Below are positions 15,736-38,572 of a stretch of 44,874 bases of DNA, piece by piece. Source of the DNA: a virus (lineage: Duplodnaviria > Caudoviricetes); IMG/VR virus record IMGVR_UViG_3300020043_002687, positions 1 through 44,874 of that record, one strand, 5' to 3'. Position numbers and translations under genes: made by a program. How positions within the stretch are numbered: the stretch's first letter is position 1; every line of letters starts with the position of its first letter. The notes under the pieces are model-generated. The model was not told the origin of the DNA, did not search any database, and worked only from the letters and a program-made list of their open reading frames with translations.

Positions 15736-15951
15736 CTAATTGAAGATTTTCATCATGTCTTCGTAGCCACCGATGTAGTGGTTGTTATACCAAATTTGAG
15801 GAACAGTCTTTAGTCCTGCCTTACCCATGAGTTTACCAATCATAGGGTGTTCAGTATAGAGGAAAGCCTCGTAAGGCTCTCCCCTGTTGTCAAGTGCTTC
15901 CATGGCTTTGTCACACCAAGAGCAATCGTCACGGCTTAAGATGTAGAACAT
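15736..15951 (-). CDS. Glutaredoxin
   Basis: CSWC active site, TVPQIW, IGGY; next to nrdJ. Confidence 0.9.
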   Translation of the reverse strand: MFYILSRDDCSWCDKAMEALDNRGEPYEAFLYTEHPMIGKLMGKAGLKTVPQIWYNNHYIGGYEDMMKIFN

Positions 15952-16163: not shown

Positions 16164-17140
16164 TTAGACCAAATCCACAATCTCGCAGCTTCCACCAGAG
16201 CAAGCAAAAGTGCTTGTACCTTTAGAAGTGTCTTCTGTCTCATACTCACTTAGCTTAGACCAATCAATACGAGCGGGCATAATGGCCAGAGCATCCAGAT
16301 ACTCCCGTTCGCTACATTCTTGGTAGGGTGCTTGCTGATAGCTGTGATCAGAGTGTGGCAAGAAGGACACACCAGATACTTCATCAAAGTACTTAAAGAC
16401 CCAAGCACCAACTTCCATCCATTCACTATCACGTACCGTAATTGTCACAGAAGGCTTATGCTCACACCAGTGACGCTGATAAGTCAACCACAATTCCAAC
16501 TGTTCGATAGCAGTCATATCGTTACGAGTTACTGCACCTACAGGAGACTTCATAGGGAAGCTAAAGACAGTGGTAGCATCAGGCTTCATCACATCAGGTT
16601 CACTCGGGATGCCTTGATCCTTCATAAACTGTGTCAAGGGGTCTTTGTTATCTCCACGTACAGTGCGAATATAATAGGCTGAGTGGCGAGCATGAATACC
16701 ACTAGCGCTGTCCACAAGTTGCGAGACTGTTCCGCTCGGTTTGACACATGTGATAGCAGCACTTGTAGGGATACCAAGATGTTCAGCCCACTCAGTGTTA
16801 GTAGCAATAGCGACATTCTTTAGATGCTCCAAGACTTGAGAGAGAGTCATACTTTCGTCATTAGTATAGTGGAAAGAAACACCTGCATCTTTGTCAATCT
16901 TTCCGTTCAGCAAAGGGCTATCCATAATGCCCGTCAACGAGACACCCAAAAGACGTTCTGCCTCCGTGTTATCTTTCCAGACCTTACGCAGGTAAGGGAA
17001 GTGGGTATAGGTAGACTGGATAGTGCCAAGGATTGTAGCTAGTTTTACTTTCCTTTCAAGTGTTTCGAGGGTGTCTGTTGCACGAACAACGACCTCCGTC
17101 AAATTGCAGAATTGATACGGTCGAAGAATAATTTCACTGC
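16164..17140 (-). CDS. nrdJ: Class II (AdoCbl) ribonucleotide reductase, exon 2
   Basis: Resumes as (T)GC AGT GAA ATT = CSEIILRPYQFCNLTEVVVR; contains TCVKPSGTVSQL and the C-terminal ACSGGSCEI. Confidence 0.92.
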
Positions 17141-17313
17141 CTCACACCACGGGGTTACATTAGCATACCCGCTTGTGCGCTGGACTATCGCATACACCTT
17201 TCGGTGTCCTCTCCGCTTAGTCTCTCACGCTGCCATTACGCTTGCGCCCTGTCGTCTTGCTACAGACTTCCAAGTCAATCAGGAGGGGTTTTAAATCCGC
17301 ACATTTATCGCTT
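17141..17313 (-). ncRNA. Group I self-splicing intron, 173 nt, no ORF
   Basis: 5' exon ends in U with P1 AAUCCGU/GCGGAUU (U-G at the splice site); P3, P5, P7 (GACUA/UAGUC), P8 with GAAA loop; terminal G; removal restores TNPCSE in frame. Confidence 0.9.
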
Positions 17314-18286
17314 ACGGATTGGTACCAAACTCAAAGTTCTGATCACGTCGTCCATTCTTTGCAGCTTGTTTCTTACTCGCAGGTCGGGAGAAGATACCAC
17401 GTTCACCAGACTTACTCTCTACAAGAGACAGCCATTCACGCATGAACGTCTCCATATCTGGCTTCTCTGTGTAGGCTACAGAGTTATTAGCCAAAGCCCG
17501 TTGTTTCTGTCCTTCCCACCAGTTACCAGATTTAGCATGACGCATACGATCATCCGACAAGTTAGACAGAGAAATCATAGCAGATCGGCGGACACCGCCA
17601 ACGACTACAACCTCACCGATCTTACACATAAGATCGTGACACTCAATAGAGTTTAGCTTACGGCCCTTTGCGTTTACAAAGGTATTCACAGTGAAGTTGA
17701 ACAACTCTACGAGAGGGGCAGGACCAGAAGCGCGACCACCAAAGGTTTTAAGTTTTGCACCAGACGGACGAACTTTAGACACATCCCATTGTGGGACCTC
17801 CCCAGCATAGAGGAGACTGATAACTTGACGAAGCGACTTTGCCCAACCTTCTTTACTGTCTTTAACTACAACTACAGTATCACTCTTGAACATTTGTTCA
17901 GGTACTTCTGGCAGTTTACTGATATACTGACGCTCAACAGAGAAACCAACACCAGTACCACAGAGTAGGATAAACATAGCTTCATCGAAAGACTTAGGGT
18001 CGTCTACAGGAAGATAACTACAGTTGTAGCCAGCGGTATTATCACGTTCAAAAGCAGGGCCAGCCGTCATGAGTGCCCGCATACTTGGGCAGATTTCATT
18101 TGACAAGATGGCTTGCTCAATCTCAGTTGTAAGGGAATTATCGTGCACCTTAGATGCGACAACATTCTTGATATACCGTGCAACAGTCTCAGCCCAATTC
18201 TCGCGACGGTTCTCAGCATCAATCCAACGAGCATAGCGAGAAGTTGCGATGAAAGACTGATAGTCTGTAGGCAAGTAGTTATTCAT
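17314..18286 (-). CDS. nrdJ: Class II ribonucleotide reductase, exon 1
   Basis: YQSFIATSRYARW, PSMRALMTAG, YNCSY, GTGVGFS, GGVRRSA, ends FGTNP; spliced product is 649 aa. Confidence 0.92.
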
Positions 18287-37933: not shown

Positions 37934-38572
37934 TTGGCTATGGACGTTAAGCGTTGTCCTAAATGCAAAGAGACAAAAGCTAAAACTGATTTTCGGAAAA
38001 ACCGTAGTTCCTACGATGGTCTTGATAACTATTGCAAGCCTTGTCGGAAGTCCATTACAAACCCAGACTACCACAAAAAGTATCGCCAAGAGAATAAAGA
38101 ACAGTCTGATCTTAAGAAGCGTGAATGGGCTGAACGAAACAAAGAACACGTTCAAGTGCAAAGAAAACAACACTACGAAGAAAAGCGAGAAGACCTTCTC
38201 TCTGAGAAGAAAGACTACTACAAGAAAAATCGTGAGAAGATTCTTGAGTATAAGTCTGCTTATCAGAAAACACACCGACACAAGAAAAATGCGATTGAAG
38301 CCAAACGTCGCACATCGAAGTTACAACGAACACCTTCTTGGTTGACACAAGACCAACTAGACACAATTGAGTATTTCTATTGGCTGTCTCGTGACTTGTA
38401 TCTGTCCACAGGAGAAAAATATAACGTAGATCACATTGTGCCTTTGCAAGGTAAAAATGTCTGCGGACTTCATGTGCCGTGGAACTTGCAAGTCCTTCCT
38501 AGCGACTTGAATATCGCAAAGGGAAATAAATACAATGACTGGCAAGAATGGTCTACCAATCCATGCGGATGA
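37934..38572 (+). CDS. HNH endonuclease between terS and terL
   Basis: CPKC...YCKPC; RTP.WLT; VDHIVPLQGKNVCGLHVPWNLQVL...N..K.N. Confidence 0.9.
   Translation: MAMDVKRCPKCKETKAKTDFRKNRSSYDGLDNYCKPCRKSITNPDYHKKYRQENKEQSDLKKREWAERNKEHVQVQRKQHYEEKREDLLSEKKDYYKKNREKILEYKSAYQKTHRHKKNAIEAKRRTSKLQRTPSWLTQDQLDTIEYFYWLSRDLYLSTGEKYNVDHIVPLQGKNVCGLHVPWNLQVLPSDLNIAKGNKYNDWQEWSTNPCG

Follow-up and report, generated by a model that had tools for sequence, protein, structure and literature searches.

A putative 173-nt group I intron splitting the thiyl-cysteine codon in nrdJ of a phage

The interrupted nrdJ gene

The stretch of DNA analyzed here (the window) is a complete phage record of 44,874 bases with direct terminal repeats. 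Its minus strand carries nrdJ, whose coding sequence is interrupted by a short insert. Exon 1 (17314-18286, minus strand) comprises 324 codons plus the first base of a cysteine codon and includes the B12 insertion domain PF21995. Exon 2 (16164-17140, minus strand) runs from the remainder of that codon, which specifies the thiyl cysteine, and encodes a glutamate two residues further on, a second active-site cysteine, and the C-terminal CxxxxC; both halves match PHROG 367 (phrog_367). Between them lies the insert (17141-17313, minus strand), a putative ORF-less group I intron of 173 nt whose last base is a G at 17141. A first-pass annotation had positioned the insert correctly but had left the minus strand of the gene unstated. 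Located 3' of nrdJ and outside the intron, a glutaredoxin/thioredoxin-domain gene (15736-15951, minus strand; phrog_22) likely encodes the reductant for NrdJ.

We aligned the intronless relative L363 to Lactobacillus leichmannii RTPR (1L1L), which placed its motif on N406-C408-E410 and C419; the cysteine split in the window corresponds to C408, the established thiyl cysteine. Since this cysteine sits in N-P-C-x-E and the B12 insertion domain is present, the host gene is, as judged by its sequence, a class II monomeric ribonucleotide reductase of the RTPR type. When the insert was removed in 13 registers (-6 to +6), one alone yielded N-P-C-S-E and a 649-aa NrdJ, with the same motif as in intronless alleles; four of the other 12 stayed in frame but lacked the cysteine, and eight hit an early stop. 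The unspliced frame meets TAA at the cysteine codon. The register test thus bears out the earlier proposal that the insert splits the catalytic cysteine codon and that its removal restores the full-length protein, and the stop predicted for unspliced RNA is where it was said to be.

An identical 173-nt insert is present in a separate contig (L003), which matches the window at 96% identity over the final 300 bases of exon 1, and an isolate genome, that of Roseobacter phage CRP-118 (OR420741), has a 172-nt insert with 88.6% identity at the same codon. These two copies exclude an assembly artefact, the possibility that the first-pass annotation had set out for checking. The gene region of CRP-118 averages 69.8% identity to the window, in contrast to the 88.6% of the insert, and its nrdJ is annotated as two CDSs; the word "intron" is absent from the main text of the CRP-118 paper (PMC11092137). 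We did not take this comparison by itself as proof of horizontal transfer, since higher intron identity could reflect structural constraint.

The GenBank record of CRP-118, with its two ribonucleotide reductase CDSs, raises the alternative that the halves function as two separate polypeptides, or that the insert is a dead remnant in a pseudogene. Phage reductases that are fractured yet function with no splicing have been described, as in Aeh1 nrdA (available part of PMC3653736). No spliced reads were found in four contig-only RNA runs of low share, a result that by itself counts neither for nor against splicing: each of seven runs held 0.04-0.10 of the sampled words, and the four contig-only runs gave six joints, none of them 17314-17140. 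However, exon 1 stops before the cysteine and the first start codon of exon 2, at 17102, lies beyond both the thiyl cysteine and the second active-site cysteine, so the separate chains would lack both residues and splicing would be needed for a working enzyme. The exons also look to be under purifying selection, with 26 synonymous and no replacement differences from L473 over 200 codons, and P1 and P10 track exon sequence (see below), both of which argue against a pseudogene. We consider either form of this alternative highly improbable. Sigma-70-like sites were at chance level (3 found versus 4.2 expected), and an internal promoter was rejected.

Fold and co-variation of the insert

Read along the minus strand, the insert can be folded as follows. 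P1 (17294-17320) joins exon bases 17320-17314 to the guide 17300-17294 through seven pairs, with a U-G at the 5' splice site, and P10 consists of three pairs between 17303-17301 and the first three bases of exon 2. P3 (17288-17282 with 17214-17208) encloses P4 (17274-17271 with 17251-17248, four pairs), P5 (17267-17254, a 14-nt hairpin), and P6 (17246-17244 with 17230-17228), which bears P6a. The P7 pseudoknot (17224-17218 with 17187-17182) has one bulged base ahead of a G-C pair and is predicted to form the guanosine-binding site. P8 (17194-17207) is a hairpin with a GAAA loop, the loop in which sibling introns hold GIY-YIG or HNH genes, and P9.0 (17179-17175 with 17147-17143, five pairs) together with a single P9 hairpin (17172-17149) constitutes the shortened 3' domain found in the compact clade described below. 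P2 is absent because 5 nt alone lie between P1 and P3, and the intron also has no P5 extension, P7.1, or P9.1/9.2. Stops occur in all three frames, the longest stop-free frame being 31 codons.

P1 with a U-G at the cut, P5, P6, P7, P8, P9, and the terminal G had all been listed in the first-pass annotation and are all present, and the short P1-P3 gap and short open frames agree with its statement that the insert has neither P2 nor an ORF. The P3 it drew exists as a helix but includes one C-A mismatch in seven positions, and its list, correct for the helices it named, had overlooked P4, P9.0, and P10.

The folding energy is unremarkable (z = -1.19), and the energy-minimum fold recovers all helices but the P7 pseudoknot and P10; support for the fold comes from co-variation. 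Homologues were gathered with core patterns, and two IMG/VR scans returned at least 120 and at least 123 loci. Among the matches listed, 158 distinct anchors gave 136 parsed cores, and 22 anchors were left unparsed. Three P6 pairs are kept in 134-135 of these 136 cores among the matches listed (shuffle means 83-121) and the first and last P7 pairs in all 136 (shuffle means 107 and 116), where kinship among the sequences inflates the shuffle contrasts and the search patterns, which fixed P4 and part of P7, build in invariance at those positions. The variable P7 pairs exchange G-C, A-U, and U-A, and compensatory changes are present in P5 and P6. In the same 136 cores among the matches listed, the seven P3 positions pair in 125-136, the P5 hairpin measures 8-27 nt, the gap from P7 to P3' is three bases throughout, and P4, part of the search pattern, has four standard pairs followed by an atypical A-G opposition in every case.

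For nine short reductase introns, the full structure including P7 and P10 was evaluated: 96.7% of cells pair, and both sides change at 20 of 51 pairs; slid registers gave 35-46%. The 69 distinct introns at the cysteine codon show seven exon/guide combinations, each with a P1 of at least six pairs, and their P10 pairs total 254, compared with 174 on average and 202 at most after shuffling. The guide tracks the exons in both P1 and P10, as selection for accurate splicing predicts. From these sequence comparisons, a group I fold of the insert is well supported, and together the fold co-variation and the exon-tracking guide support the original reading of a group I intron that splits the codon for the thiyl cysteine in a class II reductase.

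P7.1/P7.2, between P7 and P3', are a feature of subgroup IA, and P5abc is a feature of IC1. The subgroup IA (IA2) elements P7.1/P7.2 are absent from all 136 parsed cores among the matches listed; P5abc is also absent, P5 being the hairpin noted above. Phage introns have traditionally been assigned to IA2 (PMC11878797, in part). The first-pass annotation had suggested a search with covariance models, which was negative for the general one: when the window was scanned with Rfam RF00028 (Intron_gpI), no match appeared at the gathering score (50 bits) or at E up to 10, and among five relatives scanned L308 alone scored, at 18 bits. RF00028 is known to be weak here, since it misses ID, IE, and phage variants (PMC11878797, in part). 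Because ID and IE align poorly to RF00028 (same source, in part), the insert may belong to ID or IE.

Relatives at the cysteine codon and in other genes

A 3' marker of the compact form retrieved 56 IMG/VR and 47 metagenome loci, from collections that overlap, giving 104 with the window. At the reductase cysteine codon, 97 of the 104 loci were resolved by a parser that itself demanded this context; of the seven that were not, two were apparent chance matches. The 69 distinct introns at this codon comprise 53 ORF-less forms of 166-223 nt, 40 of them no longer than 180 nt and 13 shorter than 173 nt, and 16 long forms of 597-784 nt with a frame of 134-241 codons. Each of the 69 meets an in-frame stop within five codons, which in 52 of them is located at the split codon itself. 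Three loci (L495, L500, and L528) belong to another type of reductase and carry a compact intron at the cysteine of N-A-C-T-E; their guide is altered to match. L495 is the shortest found, at 166 nt, and L440, L445, L465, and L498 also fall at 166-167 nt. Claims of shorter group I introns exist for fungi and organelles. The window intron is not unique, and its clade contains smaller members. The earlier suggestion that it is among the smallest natural group I ribozymes holds against two curated GISSD subtype alignments, since it falls below the lower ends of IA3 (205-374 nt) and IB4 (203-392 nt) (Nawrocki et al., PMC6125680, in part), but is tempered within the clade, where those 13 of 53 ORF-less siblings are shorter. 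Neither the pattern nor model R1, which was built from these sequences, found a second copy in the same phage genome. In the open-licence PMC and bioRxiv literature, subscription papers being outside this scope, we found no description of the compact clade, and the available parts of PMC10580990, PMC8323127, and PMC10254303 contain nothing on this intron family.

The added sequence of the long forms sits in the P8 loop, which varies across the clade. A GIY-YIG endonuclease is encoded in the introns of L035 and L449 and an HNH endonuclease in those of L452, L469, and L027, the last found via the core pattern. Two unrelated endonuclease families in one loop imply at least two gains. Outside P8, the window intron and that of GIY-YIG-bearing L449 are 96% identical over 168 columns, and L441 and L442 retain apparent endonuclease remnants (gene ends) in P8. 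In L439, L449, and other GIY-YIG alleles, the endonuclease starts just past the purine-rich P3' strand and stops at the 3' side of P8; the P3' strand could double as a ribosome-binding site for the endonuclease, hidden once the intron folds.

Of 597 confirmed nrdJ relatives, the best 80 comprised 77 intronless alleles, one with the intron, and two that were cut off. Introns of 221-272 nt also occur at the nrdJ cysteine codon among our loci. A survey of nrdJ alleles, recommended in the first-pass annotation, found both intron-minus and endonuclease-bearing versions at the same codon. A quick exon tree (58 rows, weak support) intersperses compact, endonuclease-bearing, and intronless states, with 15 changes, and the closest exon-1 relative of the window on it, L352 (95%), is intronless. 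A quick intron tree with few well-supported branches separates compact from endonuclease-bearing forms with 2 changes, and we accordingly rejected the idea that every compact copy arose through its own separate loss of an endonuclease; the compact form may be ancestral rather than a product of endonuclease loss. The occurrence of compact, endonuclease-bearing, and intronless alleles at one codon fits a homing element at a conserved codon.

Compared with L035/L439 (one contig), nrdJ of the window is 98-100% identical in exon 2 and the last 56 bases of the intron and ~80% identical in exon 1. This match suggests that nrdJ is a mosaic with a crossover within the intron, and recombination there would fit it. 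Elsewhere in the window, positions 37934-38572 (plus strand) encode a free-standing 212-aa endonuclease of the PHROG endonuclease VII family with an HNH-like C-terminus; its gene, flanked by a putative small terminase gene on one side and terL on the other, overlaps the terL start.

The core patterns also detected a wider family. Of 140 flanking frames, 60 were scanned, a set that omits near-duplicates and most of the known reductase sites. Major capsid genes accounted for 29 of the 60, tape measure genes for 5, reductases for 4 (one class III), endonucleases for 2, and a portal and an RtcB-like ligase gene for 1 each; 18 had no match. Capsid genes are the main hosts of this wider family. Most members in other genes have a longer 3' domain, as far as automatic boundaries, which are unreliable, can be read: in non-reductase hosts 106 of 172 cores were called, many visibly wrong, and lengths were unused as counts. 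In several contigs, a single capsid region holds at least two members of the family. One member, in L002 (MW202674.1, about 16870-17090), interrupts the gene for a P22-like coat protein, which the record annotates as two CDSs, along with a 39-codon hypothetical gene within the intron. In L037, the upstream frame ends in an intein-like V-H-N-C (boundary called automatically), which suggests an intein and an intron adjoining at the reductase cysteine. A 224-nt family intron (L308:976-1199; JAHFHF010000081.1, a Ca. Omnitrophota MAG) lies in the D-loop of an apparent tRNA-Asn(GTT), with a 7-pair P1 containing a U-G and a terminal G, and a similar locus occurs in L261. ARAGORN missed this tRNA, and Rfam gave a partial tRNA match only, besides Intron_gpI at the 18 bits already mentioned. 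The bacterial tRNA group I introns that we know of sit in the anticodon loop.

The distribution of these relatives bears on the proposal, made in the first-pass annotation, that dNTP supply is tied to GTP availability. The insert would then be a domesticated GTP sensor, in which scarce guanosine slows splicing and limits dNTP synthesis; the insert does block an essential cysteine, and the compact clade is almost limited to reductase genes (the 97 of 104 loci, by the reductase-context parser). However, cellular GTP is usually above the need of such ribozymes, the intron has no aptamer-like extra domain and is absent from 77 of the best 80 of 597 nrdJ relatives, its siblings bear homing endonucleases, and capsid and tail genes hold most of the wider family (capsid in 29 of the 60 flanks scanned). 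One domesticated group I intron, controlled by c-di-GMP, is known, and exogenous guanosine is used by all group I introns (PMC3984707, in part); since every one of them needs guanosine, the GTP link is generic. Guide sequence and endonuclease targeting would explain the confinement to one codon, a position that inteins favor as well (PMC2677866, in part). The proposed link is not supported, and we regard a sensor as very unlikely.

Splicing and significance of the compact clade

We consider it highly likely that the insert is a 173-nt, ORF-less group I intron in the thiyl-cysteine codon, probably spliced by guanosine initiation and probably a near-neutral selfish element. In the proposed mechanism, free guanosine bound in P7 would attack at the U-G pair of P1, and the freed exon 1 would attack past the terminal G, with P10 aligning exon 2 and setting the 3' site (PMC3984707, in part). 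Exon joining would rebuild the cysteine codon; without it, neither half could yield an active reductase. Ribosomes would come to a halt at the split codon, where the stop is in frame, leaving the core free to fold; help in folding from stop-stalled ribosomes has been noted for many such introns (PMC3984707, in part). The lineage would spread by homing when the P8 loop holds an endonuclease, from at least two unrelated families, and compact copies would move passively, by recombination or through an endonuclease acting in trans. At an invariant codon, imprecise loss of the intron would be lethal to the gene.

This reading can be refined by, and is compatible with, the idea that the insert is a true group I intron too stripped to splice alone, so that host or phage proteins are needed (RNA chaperones, ribosome stalling). 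Some Bastillevirinae introns are spliced in vivo and not in vitro (PMC11878797, in part), and the absence of P2, P5 extension, P7.1, and P9.1/9.2, the short P4, and a P8 loop so variable across the clade that a fixed tertiary contact is unlikely all point the same way. In contrast, a dedicated helper is made less likely by the recurrence of the same core across numerous unrelated phages, prophage-like loci, and genes, and the energy-minimum fold already has every helix but the P7 pseudoknot and P10. We rate protein dependence as a serious possibility, somewhat short of an even chance, and lean modestly toward splicing without protein.

Group I introns are known in T4 nrdB and nrdD, and the Azoarcus pre-tRNA-Ile intron, of about 205 nt, is a small, ORF-less example with its guanosine site in P7. 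The window intron differs from that of Azoarcus in being 32 nt shorter, lacking P2, residing in an mRNA, and having endonuclease-bearing sisters. Like the introns of Twort nrdE and B. cereus-group nrdE/nrdF, it has a group I core and interrupts a reductase gene close to conserved residues, but the Twort, B. cereus-group, and T4 introns are in class I or III genes, whereas this one is in a class II nrdJ. Reductase introns of phages and Bacillus have full, remnant, or absent endonucleases, including the GIY-YIG enzyme I-BthII (PMC2248736 and PMC3653736, in part); relative to these, the window intron lacks P7.1/P7.2 and P2, and the endonucleases of its clade are in P8. The position directly N-terminal to the thiyl cysteine is the most frequent intein site in class I/II reductases (Dassa et al., PMC2677866, in part). 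Inteins share this target but act by protein splicing, whereas the window insert is an RNA fold with stops in all frames.

Short group I introns, with an average model match of about 206 nt, have been described in core genes, including nrdD, of the Jug gut jumbo phages, with reads supporting splicing for 37 of 76 (PMC12880540, in part). Those introns were found in gut phages with published subtype models, and a motif search of part of the Jug supplement (PMC12880540) gave no family member. The Selles Vidal database was seeded with RF00028 matches and GenBank boundaries (PMC11835236, in part); because of this seeding, the CRP-118 intron, being unannotated, is unlikely to be included.

A homing intron at an invariant codon is a known pattern; new here is a very compact, Rfam-invisible clade of phage group I introns with a cultured representative. 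The traits that we propose for a subgroup are a four-pair P4 and the lack of P2, P7.1, and a P5 extension. A bolder view is that the insert belongs to an uncatalogued subgroup of phage group I introns, that the reductase-specific clade within it (166-180 nt) comprises the smallest natural group I ribozymes with a complete core that self-splice protein-free, and that this clade is a minimal scaffold entered and left time and again, at P8, by unrelated homing endonucleases; we advance this combination tentatively and think it rather unlikely as a whole. An intron of 166-173 nt with about 50 variants would define the minimum of the group I ribozyme, below the ~205 nt of Azoarcus, and might serve as a compact part for RNA circularisation or trans-splicing. 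As the family escapes Rfam, those phage nrdJ and capsid genes that contain it are recorded as broken or split (CRP-118, MW202674), a misannotation that affects RNR-based surveys of marine viruses. With one cultured phage-host pair, CRP-118 and Roseobacter FZCC0023, splicing is directly testable.
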